Under the pieces are notes generated by a model. The model was not told the DNA's origin, ran no database searches, and was given only the letters and a program-made list of their open reading frames with translations. DNA of 64,000 nucleotides from an uncultured delta proteobacterium (lineage in GTDB: Bacteria > Desulfobacterota > Binatia > Bin18), in contig CAVTCR010000062.1 in assembly GCA_963733195.1 (NCBI GenBank), forward strand, positions 288,001 through 352,000, given 5' to 3'. Positions 3,989 through 52,035 of the stretch are shown in pieces. Every line of letters starts with the position of its first letter. The stretch's first letter is position 1. The translations under genes and the position numbers were made by a program.

Positions 3989-4119
3989 TTCATCATTCTG
4001 CATTCATCGTTCATCATTTCGTGTTCCTCGTTTCGTACGACTCCCAGACTCTCAGACTCCTAGACTTTCCGCATCCTGGCCCGTTTTCATCATTTTTGCC
4101 TTTTGCCCTTTGACTTTTT
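3989..4119. repeat. cluster of three different short tandem arrays (TTCATCA-like, GACTCCCA-like, TTTTGCC-like)
   Basis: ttcatca-ttctgca-ttcatcg-ttcatca; gactccca-gactctca-gactccta; ttttgcc-ttttgcc-ctttgac. Confidence 0.8.
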
Positions 4120-24767: not shown

Positions 24768-24775
24768 AAAACGAG

Positions 24776-24851
24776 CGTAAAACGTAAGGCGTAAAACGTA
24801 AAAAGGGGGCAGAAGTAGTTACGTTTCACGTTTCACGTTTTACCTCTTACG
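24776..24851. repeat. inverted pair of heptamer arrays (CGTAAAA / TTTCACG)
   Basis: cgtaaaa-cgtaagg-cgtaaaa-cgtaa, short spacer, then ttacg-tttcacg-tttcacg-ttttacc-tcttacg. Confidence 0.85.
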
Positions 24852-24957
24852 TTCGTCGCATTTGCCCCTTGACGCTCCTATCGCTATCCTATTACATGCG
24901 CCTGCTTTCCAGGCGAAGGCGTAGAATCAGCAGAAGCAAACGAAGGAGACCGCTATT

Positions 24958-41770: not shown

Positions 41771-44700
41771 CTAGACGGTAGACTCTTTCAAGTAATCGCG
41801 CAGACTCCTCGCCGTATGCGAGGTGCGCCAATGCTTGAGAAGCTCCTCGGGCGGACCACAGGCAACGATGTGGCCTCCGTCCACGCCTCCCTCCGGCCCA
41901 AGGTCGATAACGTAGTCAGCTTCTTTGACGATGTCGAGGTTGTGTTCGATCGTCACGACAGTGTTGCCTTTATCTACTAGGCGATGCAATGCGTGGATCA
42001 ATTTTTCAATGTCAGCAAAATGCAATCCCGTCGTCGGTTCATCTAACACGTAGAGAGTTTTTCCCCGCGATTCCTTTGCTAGCTCATACGCAAGCTTGAT
42101 ACGCTGCGCCTCGCCACCTGAGAGTGAATTACTTGCTTGTCCAAGAGTGATGTAGCCCATGCCTATATCATCTAACAATCTGAGTGGTCCCGAGATTTTC
42201 GGTACACCGTGAAAGAAGGTGGCCGCTTCTTCAATCGTCATATTGAGCACATCGGCAATGTGTTTACCGTTGTACGCCACTGACAGGGTTTCTTCGTTAT
42301 AGCGTTTGCCACCACACTCCTCACATGCCACATACACATCCGGCAAGAAACTCATTTCCATTTTGATCTCGCCCTGCCCAGCGCATGTTTCACAACGTCC
42401 ACTTTTGACGTTGAAAGAGAAACGACCAGGTAAATAACCCTTCAATCGGGCTTCAGGGAGGAGCGCAAACAGTTTGCGCACTTCATCCCAGAAACCAACA
42501 TACGAAGCCGGGACTGAACGTGGCGTTTTCCCAATCGGCGTTTGATCCACTTCCACCACGCGTTCGATAGGATCGATTCCCTCCATACGGTCATGCAGGC
42601 CCGCACGACCAGCGAACGAGCCAAGTTTCTTCTTGAGTCCTTTGACCAAGACCTCTTGCACCAGCGAACTCTTGCCAGAACCTGATACGCCAGTCACACA
42701 GGTCCAGGTCCCGACGGGAATCCGCACATCAATGTTGCACAGGTTATGTTCCCGTGCACCAACGATAGATAAGTGAGATCGATTATCTAGCGACCGTGCC
42801 GGTCCGAGGCGTGGGTGCGAACTCTGGAGAAACCGTCCCGTCACCGAGTCGGGATTATCTTTCAAGTCGTCCGGCGTACCGATCGCGATCACTTTACCAC
42901 CGTTGACTCCAGCGCCTGGGCCAAGATCAATGACAATATCCGCACTCGCGATGGTCTGTTCATCATGCTCAACAACCAGCACCGTGTTGCCGCGCTGCTG
43001 CAGGTTGCGCAGCGTCGCAATCAGCCGTTCGTTATCACGTGGATGTAGACCGATCGTCGGTTCGTCAAGGATGTAGCATACACCACGGAGGTTGGAGCCA
43101 AGTTGCGCAGCTAGACGTATGCGTTGCGCCTCGCCACCAGAGAGGGTGTCGGCGCGACGATCAAGCGTAAGATACGAAAGTCCAACTTCGTTGAGGAACG
43201 ATAGCCGCGGCACGATCTCTTTCAAGATCGGTTCACCAATCATCGCGTCACGCTGTGACAGCGGCAGGGTCGTCATGTGTTGCAGACTATCGCCTGCCGA
43301 CATCGCCATCACTTCCCAAATCGCGTGATGACAGACTTTCACCGCGCGTGCGCGAGGATTAAGTCGCGTACCTACACACGTAGGACATGGAACTTCCGTC
43401 AGAAACTGGCTCGGATACAGGTTCGCGTCTTCGCCTTCACTGCCAGTAATAGCATCGTTGAGAATCGTAAACGCACCACGCACGGTCTTGTCGTCACCGA
43501 GGAACACTAACCGGCGCTGCTCGGTACTCAACTCACCAAACGGTCGGTCTAGTGGTACTCCATGTTTTTTCACATCACGAAGCAACTTCGCATGCTCGCG
43601 ATGAAATTCAGAGCGTGTGAGCGGGAACAACGCCCCATCATTGAGCGATTTACTGTTTTCCGGGACCACAAGTGCCGGATCAAACTCCCAACGTGCCCCG
43701 AGGCCGGAACAGTCTGGACACGCCCCCTGGCGACTATTAAAAGAGAAAAGGCGCGGGTCTAGCAACTCATATCCTAATCCACACGCCACACAGAACAGTT
43801 TCTCACTGTAAGTGCGTTCACCACCTTCACCTTTGAGATGAACTGCGCCATTACCCACCCGAAGCGCTGTTTGCAGCAACGGCTCGATCTTCTGTACTGC
43901 TCCGTTAACAGTCGCACTCCCAATGACGATCTCGAGGTCGTGTTCCTTGTAACGCGCCAGGCTCATCCCTGACGTCAGTTGTGTCATACGCCCGTCAATA
44001 AGCGCCTGCTTGAATCCCAGCTTGCGTGCACCTTCTAATGTATCCTTATGAAAACCTTTGCGCCCACGCACCACCGGTGCCAGGAAAGACACTTCTTGGC
44101 CACGAAAGTCACTGCGTAAGCGATCAAGAATCTGACTGCGGCTTTGGACCGACAGCGGTTGCGCACAATTCACACAATGTTGCACGCCAGCCTTCGCATA
44201 TAACAAACGGAGATAATGCGAGATCTCGGTAATGGTTGCTACTGTCGAATTGCGACCGCCACGACTCATGCGTTGCTCGATCGCCACAGTGGGCGGAATG
44301 CCAGTCAGCAAATCCACGTTGGGTCGCGCCATTACTTTGATGAACTGGCGCGAGTAGGCAGACAGGCTATCGATATACCGTCGCTGTCCTTCGGCATAGA
44401 CAATGTCAAACACCAGTGTCGATTTGCCGGACCCGGATAATCCTGTAACCACCACCATCTCATCACGGGGAATCTCAACCGAGAGGTTTTGTAAATTGTG
44501 CTCTTTGGCACCGACGACGGAAATCAGCTCGCAGTTGGGGCTGAGGGCTGGGGGCTGGAGGGCTGAGGTTTAGATTTTGACTTTTGACTTTTGACTTTTG
44601 ACTTTTGACTTTTGATTTTGACTCTGACCGAGCAACCTGCGCGAGATATTGCCCCGTATACGATTTCTTGACTTTCGCCACTTCCTCCGGCGTCCCGGTG

Positions 44701-47468
44701 GCAATCACTTCTCCACCCCCATCTCCTCCCTCAGGGCCAAGGTCGATCACGTGATCAGCGCATTTGATAACTTCGAGGTTATGCTCGATGATTAACACCG
44801 AGTGACCTCGATCGACAAGTTGATTGAACGCATTGAGAAGCTTCTGAATGTCGGCAAAATGTAAGCCTGTCGTTGGTTCATCGAAGATAAAGAGTGTACT
44901 CGTCGCTTGCTCATCTTTTCCATCTTTGAACAACGAAACAGGGGTTTCTTTTTCCCTGCCGATGTGGGCGGCAAGTTTCAATCGTTGCGCTTCACCACCT
45001 GAGAGAGTAGTCAACGACTGCCCGAGGCGCATGTACTCCAAACCAACCGCGGCGAGCGGTGTAATCCGCTTAATAAGTTCCGCTTGCTTAGAGAAGAACT
45101 CTAACGCTTCAGCAACCGTGAGGTTCATGATCTCGGTCAGATTCTTCCCCTGATACATGACTTCCAGGACTTCTGCGCGGAAGCGTGTTCCATGACACTC
45201 TGGACACGGTACGTACACATCGGAGAGAAACTGCATCTCGATTTTTTCAAACCCTTCACCTTTGCACGTTTCGCATCGTCCTCCTTCCACATTGAAGGAA
45301 AAGGTTCCAGGGGCGTATCCGCGCAACCTCGACATCTCGGTGTCAGCCAACAGGCGGCGAAGCGGGTCGAAAGCTTTTGTATAGGTGAGGAGATTCGCTC
45401 GTGGCGTCGTGCCAATCGGCGCCTGATCAACAAAGATCACATCCGCGAGATTCTCCCCACCAGTGATGTCACGACAGGCGCCAGGAATCCCCACCGCTTC
45501 GCCTTTGCGCTTCTTCAAATTGCGGTACAAGACCTCTTCCACCAAGGTAGATTTTCCTGATCCTGACACTCCGGTGATACACACCATGCAGCCGAGCGGA
45601 ACCGAGACTGTCACATCCTTGAGATTGTGGGCCGTCGTGCCGCTGATTGTGAGGGCCGGCTTGCCTTTTACACTCCGGCGACGCTTTGGCACCGCAATTT
45701 CTGCACGACCTGACAAGTACTTCCCAGTCAGCGAACGCTTATCTTGAAGGATCTTGTCATAGGAGCCAGCAAAGACGACATCACCCCCTTTCTCTCCAGC
45801 GAGTGGTCCCATATCAAGAATGTAGTCTGCCTCGCGAATGATTTCCGGATCGTGCTCGACCACAACAACCGCGTTGCCATTGTCACGCAAACCCTTGAGA
45901 ATCCGCACCAAGCGATGACTGTCGCGGGGATGAAGCCCGATCGATGGCTCATCGAGAATGTAGAGCGTATTCACCAACGAGGATCCAATCGCGGTTGTGA
46001 GATCTACGCGTTCGAGCTCACCACCTGAGAGGGTGCGCGACTGGCGATCAAGGGTAAGATACTCAAGGCCGACTTCAACCAAAAAACGTAATCGTTTGCG
46101 AATCTCATCAAGAATGAGGTGGGCAACTTGATCCTGAAACACCGAAAGTTGCAGATCGCGAAAAAAGGCGTAGCATTCACTAACACTGAGTTGGTTGATA
46201 TCGGCCAATGTTTTCCCGCCGACACGATAGAGCAGACCATCGGGTTTGAGTCGCGCTCCTTTGCAGGTCTCGCAGGGAAAGTAGCCACGATAGCGCGCAA
46301 GGAATACGCGCACGTGCATCTTGTAGGCCTTCCCTTCAAGCCAGCGAAACCAGCCACGGACGCCGTAGTAATCGCCATCACCATCAATAACGATCCGTTG
46401 CTGCTCAGCCGTAAGTTCTTGCCATGGTACTGTCGCCGGAATCTTGCGTTTTTGACAGAACGACACCAGCTCGCGTCGTTCCCATTGCGCGGCTTTGATC
46501 CGCCACGGCTTGATCGCTCCATCTTTCAATGACAGCGTCGGATCAGGGACAACCAGGTCAAGGTCAATATCAATCGTCCGCCCGAATCCACGACAGGATT
46601 CACATGCGCCCAACGGACTATTGAAAGAGAACATGTTGGGCACCGGTTCTTTGTAGGTAATGCGGCAAGAGGCACACTCCAGTTGATCAGAGAACGGCAG
46701 CTCGTTGTTGTCATCCTCAGGAAAGATCAGGATCAGCCGACCTTTGCCATAGCGAAAGGCTTGCTCTAACGAGTCATGAATACGTTTTTTACTCCGATCA
46801 TTGAGCACGAGGCGATCGACCAATACAGTGAAGTACTCTTGTCCTTCGACTGGCCGTTCGCCGAGTTCTTGAATGTCGAGCACCTCGCCATTTTCGACTA
46901 AGCGATGAAAACCGGAATGTAACAAACCGTCACGGATTTCCGTCCACGGCAGCGACGGCGGAGCTGATATCGAAAAGGTCACGAGGAATCGTGCATCTTC
47001 GGGACGTGAGGCCGAGAGTTTGCGAAAGACCGACTCCGCTGAATCACGCTCAACGACTTCGCCGCATTGGCGACAGTGCAACACACCGATCTTCGCGAAT
47101 AACAACTTCAAGTGGTCGTGGAGCTCGGTCATGGTGCCAACCGTCGAACGTGACGTCCGCACCGGACGGTTCTGATCAATAGCGATAGCGGGCAGGATGC
47201 CTTCGATTTTCTCGACCTTCGGTTTATCCATGCGGTCGAGAAACTGGCGCGCATACGCAGAGAAACTCTCAACGTACCGCCGCTGTCCTTCGGCATAGAG
47301 GATGTCAAAGGCGAGGCTCGACTTTCCCGAACCACTGACACCGGTGACCACGGTCAGTTGGTTCAGTGGGATCTTCACATCGATATTTTTAAGGTTGTTC
47401 TGGCGCGCGCCGGTAATCGTAATCGCATCGGCGTTAGTATTAGTGTTTCGTACTCCGTTGGTGCTCAC
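41771..47468 (-). CDS. uvrA: double-length excinuclease ABC subunit A (two fused UvrA units), frameshift in the linker near 44540-44570
   Basis: Four Walker A motifs ([16 protein letters not shown]), four LSGGE signatures, Zn fingers; second unit begins [14 protein letters not shown] without its own start. Confidence 0.9.
44537..44623. repeat. two abutting heptamer arrays (GGGCTGA-like and TTTTGAC) in the UvrA linker
   Basis: ttttgac x5 plus variants; gggctga/gggctgg variants. Confidence 0.9.
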
Positions 47469-47685
47469 CCACGTCCTCCACTGAAGGCAGGGGTCGGGTT
47501 TCAGAGATCGGGGATTAGTTTCCTAAGTCTGCAACTTCTGTAAGCCTTTTTCACCAACCCTGACCCCTGACTCCTAGCCCTTAACATCATACTTCGAGTG
47601 TAAATCGTCCCTCTTCATAGTCGCTGCATGCCAGTGAGTCCAGACGGGCACTATGCTACAGTGGGGGCGTTTCAGGAGGCTTTGC

Positions 47686-49087
47686 ATGGGAGGAGAATTT
47701 TGGTTTGAGGTCGCGATCATTCTATTGTTGATCCTTGCGAACGGTTTCTTTTCTGGCTCAGAGATGGCGATTATCTCTGTCCGCCGCAGCCGCATTGATC
47801 AACTGGTAGAGGACGGACACAAGTCTGCCCAAGTGGTAGCGCGTCTCAAGGATGATTCCGACCGCTTTCTCGCGACGGTCCAGGTGGGGATCACGTTAGT
47901 TGGTTCTCTTGCCTCAGTGCTGGGAGGTGCCTCGGCGATAGAATACCTACGCCCGATCTTTCAGCAAAGCGAGAGTGCCTTTCTTCGTCAGTGGGGCGAA
48001 GCTACTCGCCCTCGGTGTCATGGTTGTCATTATTTCATACTTGTCCTTGGTCTTGGGAGAATTGGTTCCGAAAACCCTCGCTCTGCGCTACTCGGAACAG
48101 ATCGCCCTTTTTGTCGCCCGTCCGCTCGATCTTCTCTCACGGATGCTCTCCGTGATTGTGCGCTTTCTCACCGCCTCTTCCAACGTGCTCCTCTTTTTCA
48201 CCGGTACCGGCGCCAAATCGACCGAAGCCCTCATTTCTGAAGAAGAGGTTCGCTATCTCGTTAGCGAAGGCGCAGAGAAGGGAGTCTTCGATGACACGGA
48301 GAAAGAGTTTATTCATAGTGTGTTTGATTTTGCGGATACGTCGGTGCGAGAAATACTGACTCCGCGTACGGAAATTCACGGCCTTGAAGTCTCCACCTCG
48401 GCAACCGACGCTCTACACGAGATGATTGAGAGCGGTTTTTCACGCATGCCAGTGTATGAAGAGGATTTGGACCACATTATCGGGATCGTGCATATCAAAG
48501 AATTACTGAAAGCCCGTGAGCACGGAGAAAGCGCGTCATTACGGAACCTCTTACACCCAGCGCATTTTGTGCCCGACTCCATGCAGATCAGTCATTTGTT
48601 ACGCGAACTGCAAGTGCGACGAGCGCATATGGCAATCGTCATTAACGAATTCGGTACCGTAATCGGCATCGCCACCATTGAAGACATCATGGAAGAGATC
48701 GTCGGTGAGATTCGCGACGAGTATGATGAAGATGAAGAACAGCCAGTGCAGGAAATTTCCGAAGGCGTGTTGCTGGTTGAAGGCGGCGTCGCGCTCAGCG
48801 AACTCAAAGAAGAGCACAGTATTCCCCTCGAAGAAACCCAGGCCTACCGCACTCTCGCGGGTTTTCTTCTCGCCCGCCTCGAACGCATTCCACGTGGACG
48901 TGAGATCGTCACGCACGAAGGCTATCGTTTCACGATTGTTGAGATGGATGGGCGACGGATTGCGAAAGTGCGGGTGGAAAAGATCGATAACCCACCAGTA
49001 CCAACTGCTACCATCCGTTCAGGAGGAGAGCAAGCAGCCAGCGAATGGATAGCCGAGAGGCTAAAGTCTAGGAGTCTGGGAGTCTGA
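47686..49087 (+). CDS. hemolysin/CNNM family (DUF21-CBS-CorC) protein, frameshift near 47995
   Basis: ANGFFSGSEMA, QVGIT, GELVPK, FSRMPVY, EDIMEEIVGEIRDEYD, TLAGF. Confidence 0.92.
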
Positions 49088-49101
49088 AGAGTCTAGGAGT
49101 C
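49066..49101 (+). repeat. left arm: AGTCTRGG octamer array
   Basis: gtctaggagtctgggagtctgaagagtctaggagtc; 32/36 identical to the reverse complement of 49521-49556. Confidence 0.9.
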
Positions 49102-49135
49102 GAAAAACTTATGAGCTTATAAAGGGGTATTGAGT

Positions 49136-49510
49136 ATGCCAACGGTACGGCGATTTGAAGATTTGCAAGCGTGGCAGAAAGCGCGAGAGTTGGTCCGTGA
49201 AATTTATACAACGAGCGCTGACGGACGCTTGAGCAAAGATTTCGGATTGCGAGATCAAGTCTGCCGTGCTGCGGTATCAGCCATGAGCAACATCGCTGAG
49301 GGGTTTGCAAGAGGAAGCGATAAAGATTTCGCTCATTTTCTTGATATCGCTAGAGGATCATCGCTAGAAGTACAGTCTCTACTCTATGTTGCACTCGATG
49401 TCGGATATATCGATCAACAACAATTCGAGAGATTATACAAACTGGCCGACGAGACAGTCTCCCTCATCATCGGCTTCAGCTCATACCTTCGTAAGCACCC
49501 CAGCTCCTAG
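49136..49510 (+). CDS. four-helix-bundle protein (23S rRNA IVS protein family)
   Basis: FEDLQAWQKA, DFGLRDQ..RAAVS.MSNIAEGF.R, FLDIARGS..E..S.L..A.D.GY. Confidence 0.93.
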   Translation: MPTVRRFEDLQAWQKARELVREIYTTSADGRLSKDFGLRDQVCRAAVSAMSNIAEGFARGSDKDFAHFLDIARGSSLEVQSLLYVALDVGYIDQQQFERLYKLADETVSLIIGFSSYLRKHPSS

Positions 49511-49868
49511 ACGTCGCCCAGACTCCCAGACTCTATAGACTCCCAGACTCTTAGACCGTTTTACTGGCAGCACCTCCGCCTTACGATACCCTGCCCCAAT
49601 CGCGGCTCGTTCACTGGGAAAGATGACTTGATTGTCGGGATTGATCAGATCGTAGCCGTGACATCCGATGGTGCGATATACCTTGCTCCGACGGTTGGCA
49701 CGCACTTCTTCTGCCACTGAGGCTGTCTGGACCGCAGCCACTTGCACTGGGGTAGGAGCAGTTTTTCGCTTGACGACTGGAATGGCCACCACCAGTTTTC
49801 CTAGGCAAGGCAAACGTAAGACAGAGACCCAGCAGTTGACCACACCCTAGGTTTCGGACTATGAACAC
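49481..49868 (-). CDS. small putative exported protein with Ada metal-binding-like C-terminal domain (frameshifted, ends uncertain)
   Basis: NRRSKVYRTIGCHGY..I.P.N.V.F.SE..A..AGYRKA motif; hydrophobic N-terminus in an adjacent frame. Confidence 0.55.
49504..49556 (-). repeat. right arm: inverted octamer array
   Basis: ctcctagac...gactcccagactctatagactcccagactcttagac. Confidence 0.9.
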
Positions 49869-49911
49869 CTGTCCACTCGCTCACACTCTCAGCGCTAAAG
49901 GGGGGCCTCAT

Positions 49912-50895
49912 ATGGCAGAAGTAAGTAAGGATAAACTCCTCAAAATGTACCGCACGATGCAGACGATTCGCCATTTCGAGGAACGGCTGCGCGATTTGTT
50001 CAAGGAAGGGAAAGTTCCTGGCTTCGTCCATGTCTCAATTGGTGAGGAAGCGTCAGCGACCGGTGTCTGCGCTGCCCTGACCGACGAGGACTACATCACC
50101 AGTACCCACCGTGGCCACGGCCATCTTCTTGCCAAAGGTGGAAAACTCAAACCGATGATGGCCGAACTGTTTGGCAAGAAAACTGGTTATTGCAAAGGCA
50201 AAGGTGGGTCGATGCATATCGCCGACTTCAGCATCGGTATTCTTGGCGCTAATGGCATTGTTGGCGCGGGTCTGCCTATTGCTACCGGTGCCGGGTTAGC
50301 GGCAAAAATGAGAAAAAGTGGTCAGGTGGCGGTCTGCTTCTTTGGCGACGGCGCCTCGAACGAAGGTACGTTCCATGAATCCCTCAACATCGCTTCGTCC
50401 TGGAAACTCCCAGTCGTTTATGTCTGCGAGAATAACCTCTATGGCGAATTCACCGCCGGAAAAGATGTCACCTCAGTCAAAGACATTGCCGATCGTGCGC
50501 GCGGTCATGACATGCCCGGCATCATCGTTAACGGCAATGATGTGGTCGAAGTCTATGAAACAACCTCAGAAGCAGTTGCCCGTGCGCGCCGCGGAGAAGG
50601 GCCAACATTGATCGAATGCAAAACCTACCGCTGGGAAGGCCACGTCGTTGGTGAAGAAGCCTTTCTCGGCAAGAAAGCTTATCGTCCGGCAGAGGAAATC
50701 GCCGAGTGGAAAAAACGCTGCCCACTCATCTCGTTCGAGAACCGCTATACCGCAAATGGGATGTTCAATAAAGCCGACCTGGACGCGATCAAAGCCGAGG
50801 TGAAACGCGACATCGACGAGGCAGTCCAATTCGCCATCGATAGCCCATTGCCAGCTCCAGAAGAGGCGATGGAGGATATGTTTTCGGTGGCATAA
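49912..50895 (+). CDS. TPP-dependent dehydrogenase E1 alpha (acetoin/pyruvate)
   Basis: THRGHGH, GKGGSMH, GDGASNEG...ENN, TYRW.GH. Confidence 0.93.
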   Translation: MAEVSKDKLLKMYRTMQTIRHFEERLRDLFKEGKVPGFVHVSIGEEASATGVCAALTDEDYITSTHRGHGHLLAKGGKLKPMMAELFGKKTGYCKGKGGSMHIADFSIGILGANGIVGAGLPIATGAGLAAKMRKSGQVAVCFFGDGASNEGTFHESLNIASSWKLPVVYVCENNLYGEFTAGKDVTSVKDIADRARGHDMPGIIVNGNDVVEVYETTSEAVARARRGEGPTLIECKTYRWEGHVVGEEAFLGKKAYRPAEEIAEWKKRCPLISFENRYTANGMFNKADLDAIKAEVKRDIDEAVQFAIDSPLPAPEEAMEDMFSVA

Positions 50896-50896
50896 G

Positions 50897-51004
50897 AAGG
50901 GGAAACGGGAAAAAGGGTAAAAGGCGAAAAGGATAAATCATTAGAAAATTCTGGATTAGTTTTCATTTCTCCTTTTCACCGTTTCGCCCTTTCCCCTTTT
51001 CGCC
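50897..51004. repeat. inverted octamer array pair between E1 alpha and E1 beta
   Basis: aaggggaa-acgggaaa-aagggtaa-aaggcgaa ... ttctcctt-ttcaccgt-ttcgccct-ttcccctt. Confidence 0.8.
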
Positions 51005-51066: not shown

Positions 51067-52035
51067 ATGGCTGAAATTTCATACATTCGTGCGATCAACG
51101 AAGCATTACGGGAAGAGTTACGCCGCGATCCACTTACGTTTGTGATGGGATTGGACGTTTGGGTCGGCGCCTTCGGCGCTACCGGTGGATTGACGGATGA
51201 GTTCGGCCCTGAACGTATCCGCAATGCGCCTATTTCTGAAGCTGGATATGCTGGAGCGGGTGTCGGCGCGGCAATGGCTGGGATGCGACCCATCGTGGAA
51301 ATCGAGTTCGCCAGCTTCTTCTATTGCTGCTGGGATCAGGTGTGTAATCAGGCGGCAAAGCTCCGATACATGTCTGGCGGACAAGCGGATATCCCCATCA
51401 CATTCCGTGCGGCATATGGTGCGACAGGACAAGCGGCAGCCCAGCATTCCGAGACGGTATACGCGCAGTTCATGAGCGTACCGGGGTTAAAGATCGTTGC
51501 CCCATCAGACCCGTACGACATGAAGGGCTTGTTAAAAAGCGCCATCCGCGACAACAACCCAGTCCTCGTATTCGAGCATATGGGACTCGGTCGTTTGCGC
51601 GGCCAGGTTCCTGAAGAAGATTACGTCGTGCCGATCGGCAAAGGCGCAGTTAAACGTGAAGGGAAAGACATCACCGTTGTCGCGATTGGCGCTATGGTGT
51701 CCAAAGCGCTCGCCGCCGCTAAGGCGTTGGAACAAGAAGGCATCTCCATCGAAGTGGTTGATCCACGCTCGCTCGTTCCTCTTGATGAAGAGATCATTCT
51801 CAATTCCGTAGGGAAGACACATAAAGTGCTGATCGTTGATGAAGGCCACCTGCGCGGCGGCGCAGCAGCGGAAATTGCGGCGGTGGTCGCGGATAAAGGG
51901 TTTGACCTGCTCGACGCCCCGGTCAAACGGCTGACGACCCCGGACGTACCCATCCCCTTTAGCCCACCGATGGAAAAGTTCGTGCTGCCCGATGACACGA
52001 AGATTGTCAAAGCGGTGAAGGAGTTGGTCGGATAG
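51067..52035 (+). CDS. TPP-dependent dehydrogenase E1 beta
   Basis: FGPERIRNAPISE, AAQHS, PGLKIVAPS, EVVDPRSL.PLD, LDAPVKR. Confidence 0.93.
   Translation: MAEISYIRAINEALREELRRDPLTFVMGLDVWVGAFGATGGLTDEFGPERIRNAPISEAGYAGAGVGAAMAGMRPIVEIEFASFFYCCWDQVCNQAAKLRYMSGGQADIPITFRAAYGATGQAAAQHSETVYAQFMSVPGLKIVAPSDPYDMKGLLKSAIRDNNPVLVFEHMGLGRLRGQVPEEDYVVPIGKGAVKREGKDITVVAIGAMVSKALAAAKALEQEGISIEVVDPRSLVPLDEEIILNSVGKTHKVLIVDEGHLRGGAAAEIAAVVADKGFDLLDAPVKRLTTPDVPIPFSPPMEKFVLPDDTKIVKAVKELVG

Follow-up and report, generated by a model that had tools for sequence, protein, structure and literature searches.

A four-helix-bundle gene between inverted arms of short tandem repeats in a Binatia genome, and a widespread class of cassettes with the same architecture

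The 64,000-nt stretch of DNA analyzed here (the window; G000:C62:288001–352000, from contig CAVTCR010000062.1 of assembly GCA_963733195.1) belongs to the genome of an uncultured Binatia bacterium, with 6.95 Mb in 87 contigs and 53.9% G+C. This genome is referred to as G000, its two congeners of the same genus as G001 and G002, and two genomes of other genera as G003 and G010. Within the window, a 491-bp feature contains a small gene for a four-helix-bundle protein, enclosed by two inverted arms that consist of short tandem repeats. Upstream locates a CNNM/CBS/CorC_HlyC gene (47653–49087, plus strand, identified from open reading frames (ORFs) and Pfam). Downstream lie the 3′ part of a phospholipase D (PLD)-like gene (49557–49843, minus strand, identified by blastn) and a gene for E1 alpha of a thiamine-diphosphate dehydrogenase (49861–50895, plus strand; PF00676, E = 9e-88, and synteny).

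The two arms (49066–49101 and 49521–49556) are 36 nt long and 419 nt apart, and an inverted-repeat search shows that they are complementary at 32/36 positions (89%). Tandem Repeats Finder (TRF), the source of the tandem-array calls, resolves the left (5′) arm at 49065–49101 into 4.5 copies of AGTCTAGG with a period of 8, and the right (3′) arm at 49517–49550 and 49520–49556 into the complementary CCCAGACT array of the same period. The right arm as a whole spans 49503–49556, as its TRF-defined array (49517–49556) is preceded by a degenerate unit, CTCCTAGAC. In each arm the third unit is 9 nt long, reading AGTCTGAAG in the left arm and AGTCTATAG in the right. When the four mismatches are read as plus-strand RNA, they are two G-U, one A-C and one A-A. 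A preliminary description of this sequence had reported a 36-nt stem of AGTCTRGG arrays, an irregular 9-nt unit at the same place in both arms and two G-U pairs among four differences, and our searches reproduce all of these. It had also placed the stop codons of both genes in repeat units, which holds in full for the upstream gene: the CNNM frame takes its last 8 codons and its TGA from the left arm, and ends at 49087 inside the 9-nt unit. The TAG of the bundle gene (49508–49510) lies 7 nt ahead of the TRF-defined right array, and falls in a repeat unit only if CTCCTAGAC, the exact complement of unit GTCTAGGAG, is counted as one.

The inverted-repeat score of the locus is 26, and a score of at least 14 is reached by none of the offset controls (0/295 and 0/109). 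Allowing at most one mismatch, the window has 8 occurrences of AGTCTRGGAGTCT, where 0.04 would be expected. A predicted RNA fold has the terminal stem in its minimum-energy structure (−195.6 kcal/mol, z = −6.1). A CRISPR-like array is ruled out, as the units are contiguous without spacers. A pair of terminators is also ruled out, as neither arm alone contains a hairpin.

The bundle gene (49136–49510, plus strand) encodes 124 residues, with an alternative TTG start at 49130. A spacer (49102–49135) separates the left arm from the start codon and carries a purine-rich AAAGGGG about 8 nt before the ATG. As described before, this is the only gene between the arms, judged by family matches. Its product matches PF05635 (E = 1.1e-35; 122.5 bits, cut-off 33.8) and TIGR02436 (E = 6.3e-32; 110 bits, cut-off 24), and the closest solved homologue is XCC0516 of Xanthomonas campestris (PDB 2GSC, E = 7.2e-15). 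An AlphaFold2 model with a pLDDT of 94.8 predicts helices at residues 11–28, 35–58, 62–88 and 94–120. Searching with this model in Foldseek returned 2GSC with a template modelling (TM) score of 0.85–0.91 and 2RLD with 0.74–0.86. Avd proteins of diversity-generating retroelements (DGRs; 4DWL, 8UB7–8UBE) followed with a TM of about 0.7–0.8 at about 10% identity, in line with the fold common to Avd that had been proposed earlier. Based on the profile matches and the model, the bundle protein is a PF05635/TIGR02436 member with a predicted four-helix-bundle fold like that of 2GSC and 2RLD.

In an alignment of 18 family sequences, R44-x3-S48-x3-N52-x2-E55 is invariant. The family motif is given as GxxRxxxSxxxNxxE in the relevant part of the literature (PMC3936711); three positions before R44, where that motif has G, we find an invariant Q41, and a nearly invariant G is at position 37. 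A scan of 48900–49900 for sigma-70-like promoters gave 0 sites, an Rfam scan of the locus gave nothing above E = 0.37 and the same scan on five other hairpin loci nothing, and PADLOC and PHROGs scans at the locus had no match. Two 151-nt contigs from one RNA library are identical to the bundle gene, which is not proof of transcription.

The architecture is not confined to this locus. In G000 the PF05635 profile detects eight loci, and all eight have inverted tandem arrays of 7–8-nt units on both sides, six of them as complementary TRF arrays and the other two by alignment. Among the 13 inverted pairs of G000 with a loop of 100–900 nt, seven enclose a bundle gene or its remains, including one decayed copy missed by the profile. 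At half of the eight profile loci the gene is truncated or broken (4/8: C50:197724, C7:79628, C53:41378 and C84:36049). The family is present in 18 of 31 genomes related to G000. Testable loci, 29 in number and coming from 17 of these genomes, have flanking inverted arrays without exception (29/29), with locus-specific units; under a strict criterion 20/29 pass, versus 0/109 controls. At three of the relatives' loci (L001, L014, L019), the score of the inverted repeat was equalled by a direct-repeat control.

A broader survey used a six-sequence alignment as the query and one genome per species, yielding 80 loci, 76 of which were testable. It covers Acidobacteriota, Desulfobacterota, Planctomycetota, Chloroflexota, Firmicutes, Bacteroidota, Proteobacteria, Verrucomicrobiota and Elusimicrobiota, plus an archaeon. 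The arms were sought in the 150-nt flanks at an inverted-repeat score of at least 14, with offset pseudo-genes within the same loci as controls. This score was reached at 56/76 loci and at 0/295 controls, and 49 of the 56 loci also pass a tandem-periodicity test. In five named genomes, which include complete genomes of cultured species, 19/22 loci score at least 14 and 22/22 at least 11.5; five of these 22 loci duplicate loci of the broad survey. On viral contigs, 29/39 loci score at least 14. TRF arrays of period 6–9 flank both sides of 96/122 loci, with a median of 4.4 units and 31 nt, a period of 7 in 184/214 arrays and an arm length of 25–36 nt, and the median distance from arm to start codon is 47 nt. 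A package of gene and hairpin thus surrounds nearly every PF05635 relative surveyed, across many phyla, and the flanking arrays that the preliminary description had proposed to look for at other family members are present in G000, its relatives, the surveyed phyla, the named genomes and the viral contigs.

Comparing the arms of different loci revealed which properties are conserved. The units vary in sequence from locus to locus around the consensus A-G-(T/G)-N-G-T-(C/T). AG is present in 76/82 periodic units, against a computed expectation of 36% for random heptamers of even composition, and CT in at most 31/82. The AG strand always forms the 5′ arm, regardless of which strand is read or how the gene is directed, and G exceeds C in the 5′ arm at 78/94 loci. 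An alignment of the arms over 35 loci has 1237/1539 positions in Watson-Crick pairs (80%), and the arms stay complementary while the bundle proteins have diverged to about 30–50% identity. The unit sequence drifts fast, while the complementarity of the arms, their tandem arrangement and the periodic AG of the 5′ arm persist.

The arms go with the gene. The more alike two proteins are, the more alike are their units (Mantel r = 0.16, a value reached by 0/2000 permutations), with a unit match of 6.0/7 at protein identities of at least 75% and of about 3.9/7 below 60%. Gene and unit are shared without detectable homology of the flanks at L027/L029, L065/L067/L070, L073/L101 and L100/L121, and related genes in different phyla and unrelated contexts carry identical units. 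In genome G015, which has three bundle genes, arms are found at both genes examined (L002 and L019), and about 16 loci of AGTGNNN arrays are of the same unit class as the arms of its cassettes. These data show that the arms belong to the cassette, and are gained, lost and carried to new genomic contexts together with the gene.

The site between CNNM and E1 alpha illustrates this turnover. In G003 and G010 it has neither bundle gene nor array; CNNM is followed directly by E1 alpha, and 93 and 212 nt separate the stretches that match. The bundle gene is therefore not syntenically fixed, a point for which a comparison of this locus in relatives had been suggested. In G001, the cassette at the CNNM site is 81% identical to that of G000 but inverted relative to it, and some 190 nt of AGTCTGGG units connect the flipped cassette to CNNM. 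The cassette is able to invert between its arms. It is co-oriented with its upstream gene in both genomes, with CNNM in G000 and with the PLD-like gene in G001.

Elsewhere, six of the 16 cassettes in G001 and G002 face a short empty site in G000. The empty allele of L159 has 11 nt and no array, and that of L160 a single-unit vestige. Where the congener has the cassettes L155, L027, L008 and L149, G000 has a gene-less hairpin; the units are unlike those of the filled allele in three of these four and similar in one (CAGTNNT versus CAGCGNT). The empty allele of L156 contains only decayed, hard-to-read arrays, and at L157, the seventh cassette, about 4 kb of other sequence lies between the flanks in G000.

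The same protein family is known from intervening sequences (IVSs) of 23S rRNA. In the portion of the literature that we draw on, the IVSs of Leptospira and Coxiella carry the S23p ORF of the PF05635 family, and RNase III cuts the Coxiella IVS, which holds a homologous ORF, at its 28-bp terminal stem (PMC4990558). Beside the Coxiella ORF are tandem GACAGAT heptamers, whose copy number varies by strain, and the sporadic distribution of ORF-bearing IVSs is taken there as horizontal transfer (PMC4990558). Our cassette is like an ORF-bearing IVS in that a single small ORF of this family lies inside a terminal inverted-repeat stem. Unlike the IVSs, which occupy helix 9, 25 or 45 of 23S rRNA, it sits between protein-coding genes, and unlike that of Coxiella its stem is itself made of tandem 8-mers. 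Both 23S genes of G000 are of ordinary length (2960 and 2976 nt), and no 23S similarity was found at the 122 family loci.

We favor, as a probable reading of the sequence comparisons, that the feature is one copy of a conserved cassette of bundle gene and arms, representing a non-rRNA form of the ORF-bearing 23S IVS that RNase III could release. The arms at relatives, the empty sites and the inversion lend support to the earlier suggestion of an IVS-like or mobile cassette with ends of simple repeats. Such a cassette would consist of a PF05635/TIGR02436 gene with the Avd fold between two inverted arrays of about 4–5 units of 7–8 nt. Concerted evolution at the DNA level may keep the arms complementary: slippage within an arm, combined with recombination or gene conversion between arms, would produce the complementarity, and the same recombination would flip the cassette. 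In a read-through transcript from a neighboring gene, base pairing of the arms would give a duplex of about 36 bp, which RNase III could cut, freeing the bundle-gene mRNA and leaving the host transcript unharmed. Excision by RNase III is shown for IVSs, and is proposed for this cassette by analogy. With a median spacer of 47 nt and no promoter match in the scan of 48900–49900, many copies probably rely on outside transcription. The regular AG, the constant polarity and the 4–5 units per arm lead us to guess that the bundle protein, a putative pentamer, binds the repeat arrays. The pentameric state is presumed from that of Avd and, for 2GSC, from the title of its paper.

On the other hand, a number of observations weigh against this reading. 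On the gene-sense strand, the arm mismatches of the 35 loci comprise 79 G-U versus 79 A-C, so that no selection on an RNA stem is visible; the equality points to maintenance of the arms as DNA, or to a time too short for selection to act. Scores remain below 14 at 20/76 broad-survey loci and 10/39 viral loci. The upstream gene is co-oriented in 82/98 loci and divergent in 16/98, so read-through is not the only source of transcripts; with a usual bacterial co-orientation background of about 70%, 82/98 is also too near that background for orientation to demonstrate promoter-less read-through. No RNA ends or processing were seen in the matched contigs, which are only 38–218 nt long, with 0.21 of the sampled words in the best run. 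The evidence for the inversion in G001 is a 2.8-kb contig, from a fragmented assembly, that ends at the cassette. The gene-less hairpins at L155, L027, L008 and L149 fit insertion into pre-existing hairpins as well as gene loss, and G000 also has 8 direct pairs of same-unit arrays 300–500 nt apart. With regard to mobility, no target-site duplication is evident at the filled and empty junctions read, and no transposase or recombinase was found among the neighbor genes (ORFs, Pfam), just as the preliminary description had noted neither transposase nor reverse transcriptase beside the CNNM/CorC and E1 dehydrogenase genes. The copies of a single genome are old and have diverged from one another, with at most 67% identity in G000 and at most 55% among ten copies of Flavobacterium pectinovorum, and give no sign of recent transposition bursts. 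The evidence speaks against an actively transposing element. An insertion sequence or miniature inverted-repeat transposable element (MITE) was rejected, given no neighboring transposase, no junction duplication and copies at most 67% identical.

The cassettes of G000 are accompanied by many dispersed arrays. TRF returned 3570 rows, 1160 of period 7 and 400 of period 8, which merge into 2959 arrays with about 300 distinct heptamer units. Among array pairs within 3 kb, 88 are inverted with a score of at least 14, and 53 of these have a loop of at most 100 nt; only 4/50 direct pairs lie that close. At a score of at least 12, G000 has 84 gene-less hairpins, 79 of which have the G-rich arm first, and the 5′ arm is G-rich in 34/35 cassettes.

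These arrays bear on a reading that we hold to be possible but doubtful, in which each bundle protein recognizes, makes or spreads its own (YAGKNNN)n arrays, in the manner of REPIN-RAYT systems (REP doublets forming hairpins and the REP-associated tyrosine transposase; REP, repetitive extragenic palindrome). RAYT genes are single-copy transposase genes flanked by their own REPs, and a genome may have several types, each with its own repeat. Likewise, the solitary arrays and gene-less hairpins would be non-autonomous progeny, and the gene would be kept in single copy per type with its own repeats flanking it. The cassette does resemble such a system in that its gene is flanked by inverted short repeats with further copies scattered over the genome, some as hairpins, and each genome contains one divergent copy per type. 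The dominance of period 7 among the 2959 arrays, the cassette-like G skew of the 84 hairpins and the AGTGNNN arrays of G015, of the class to which the arms of its own cassettes belong, point in the same direction. GARTKAA arrays occur in 11 of the 31 related genomes, all 11 with PF05635, and in 0/13 genomes without it, and 80-kb samples of three PF05635-less genomes gave 3–5 weak period-7 rows versus 28 in G000; such co-occurrence counts, however, are weak evidence and confounded by kinship, and G015 had 0 period-7 rows in its 80-kb sample despite its 3 cassettes. Own cassette units have a median of 5 exact matches to the dispersed arrays of G000 and foreign ones 0, a modest enrichment (9 versus 54 units) that kinship confounds as well. 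Moreover, about 300 heptamer units stand against 9 cassettes, and several abundant ones, AAAACGT and AACACGC among them, have no resident cassette. The bundle protein has no known catalytic activity; unlike a RAYT, it is a 124-residue four-helix bundle with PF05635 as the only Pfam family in its gene and without an HUH/Y1 domain, and the repeats are tandem arrays of 7–8-nt units rather than single palindromes.

We regard as unlikely that the hairpins pre-exist as host features, for instance as 3′-end structures, and that the gene enters their loops, or in a variant reaches hairpins of matching units as a copy, with the arms serving homologous recombination. Four orthologous sites do have an empty hairpin in G000 and are filled in G001 or G002, and empty hairpins outnumber cassettes by 84 to 9. 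In addition, arms of 25–36 nt are close to the shortest length that RecA-dependent recombination accepts, and arms that are inverted copies of each other would allow the gene to lie either way round. However, the empty alleles in G003, in G010 and at L159 lack any hairpin, three of the four empty alleles with a hairpin have units unlike those of the filled allele, and related genes have identical units across phyla and unrelated contexts. That the arms are recombination sites of an invertible switch, flipping the gene relative to outside promoters in a kind of phase variation, is very improbable. It would agree with the opposite orientation of the cassette in G000 and G001, each co-oriented with its upstream gene, but no site-specific recombinase was found nearby (ORFs, Pfam), and neither the other orientation nor a strand-changing joint is present in the matched sequencing-run contigs (38–218 nt). 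A single inversion between species at about 81–86% DNA identity is what ordinary inverted-repeat recombination would give. Finally, arrays are common, with 40 in the 64-kb window, and could happen to flank a small gene by chance or through an assembly artefact. We give this next to no weight, since 0/404 offset controls reach the score, the complementary arms share the irregular unit and the same architecture is present in complete genomes of cultured species.

Other known systems share single properties with the IVS-like cassette that we favor. Avd is a nucleic-acid-binding pentamer encoded beside a reverse transcriptase. The bundle protein is like Avd in its fold, at the similarity given above; unlike DGR avd genes, the bundle gene has neither a reverse transcriptase nor a template/variable repeat pair next to it, and Avd genes are not known to have tandem-repeat arms. 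An arm-less group on viral contigs (L193–195, L219) may be of the DGR kind. Cyanobacterial short tandemly repeated repetitive (STRR) sequences are tandem heptamer repeats.

Heptamer arrays have also been described without a link to the bundle gene. Those of Xanthomonas (GGGAATC) and Nostoc (GGGGA(C/T)T) are intergenic and G-rich on one strand, and in Xanthomonas 70–75 convergent array pairs per genome could form stem-loops, with a function stated to be unknown (PMC4692102). The accessible text of that article contains neither 'S23' nor 'intervening', and does not mention the bundle gene (PMC4692102). Our arrays are like them in being tandem, intergenic and G-rich on one strand, and Xanthomonas campestris is also the source of the 2GSC homologue. 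GGGAATC arrays were absent both from the genome with L127 and from 61 genomes of the same order, a sample that evidently lacks the Xanthomonas species of that article. Family genes are mentioned inside operons and cas loci, in passages that do not refer to repeats (PMC3936711), and a figure legend has members near repeat arrays, with the arrays flagged as CRISPR-associated (PMC10910872). No statement of a rule linking gene and arrays was found in the literature searched, which left out supplements and most subscription journals, so that a prior description is possible. The cassettes form a widespread, apparently undescribed class related to IVSs, with a partly resolved mechanism.

The IVS protein family has been without a function or a defined element since the 1990s, and the heptamer arrays are also unexplained (PMC4692102). 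The combination of this gene with a hairpin of tandem 7–8-mers, which keeps the phase and polarity of its AG, links both puzzles across phyla. The architecture gives a sequence-level definition of the element, and this definition accounts for family members in operons, in cas loci and near CRISPR-flagged arrays. Tentatively, and with some doubt, one may go further and regard PF05635 proteins and tandem (YAGKNNN)n arrays as a two-part system of bacteria, some archaea and phage contigs. Here an Avd-fold pentamer would recognize about five cognate units, and the gene would be kept between inverted copies of its own array. The dispersed heptamer arrays and hairpins would be its gene-less progeny, including the Xanthomonas GGGAATC arrays and perhaps the cyanobacterial STRR sequences, and the ORF-bearing 23S IVSs would be copies that landed in rRNA.

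The neighbors of the cassette vary as well. In G001 and G002, an extra stretch of about 0.8 kb lies between cassette and E1 alpha. In G001 this stretch is a PLDc_2 gene (PF13091, E = 4.6e-24) that the contig end cuts short and that codes for at least 284 residues. The remnant in the window matches the congeners by blastn, at 86% to G001 (49611–49712) and at 78% to G002 (49557–49708); a Pfam scan of the remnant ORF gave no family. Most of the PLD-like gene is lost in G000, and the deletion abuts the right arm of the cassette. The CNNM/CorC gene of the window occupies two overlapping frames, of 200 and 381 residues, where the G001 orthologue is a single frame of 475 residues; either a frameshift or a sequencing error would explain the split. 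A sequence running into the annotated E1 alpha start, GTTGACC...CTAGG.TTTCGGA.TATGAACACCTGTCC (49831–49880), is conserved in three genera (window, G003 and G010), and may contain the promoter and leader of E1 alpha.

Besides the cassette, the window contains two further hairpins among its 40 arrays, and a further AGTCTRGG array at 4038–4066; many arrays of this type occur in G001 and G002. The hairpin at 50897–51004 has an array of the AAGGGGAA type, a 33-nt loop and the complementary array, and fills the gap between the E1 dehydrogenase ORF (49861–50895) and an ORF at 51067–52035, read as E1 beta from its translation only. The other, at 24775–24853, has a 15-nt loop and is gene-less. At 44475–44623, seven TTTTGAC and four GGGCTGA units lie inside the 3′ end of a minus-strand ORF (44475–47468) that looks like UvrA from its translation, where the heptamers are read as a KSKVKSQ-type tail. 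The arrays therefore extend gene ends there, as at CNNM.

Some repeat hairpins of G000 enclose other sequences. At L143 (G000:C28:61835–62551), inverted AGGATTT/AGGCTTT arrays with a 655-nt loop enclose a frameshifted cas4, with its pieces matching Cas_Cas4 at E = 1e-14 and 0.0075, so that the bundle gene is not the sole possible cargo. L141 (G000:C74:166084–166543) and L142 (G000:C7:93210–93703) have loops of about 420 nt; one holds an ORF of 107 residues without a Pfam family, and the other an ORF of 133 residues that is cupin-like by eye. A perfect 25-nt inverted repeat, 800 nt apart, at G000:C48:29969–30818 is a different kind of long palindrome, with nearly the same 120-residue sequence coded on both strands of its interior. 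Beside the cassette of L153 in G002 (C27), a 150-nt element (1269–1419 of L153) represents an unrelated dispersed repeat, with copies of 78–86% identity on at least six G000 contigs (C53, C62, C14, C83, C16 and C73).

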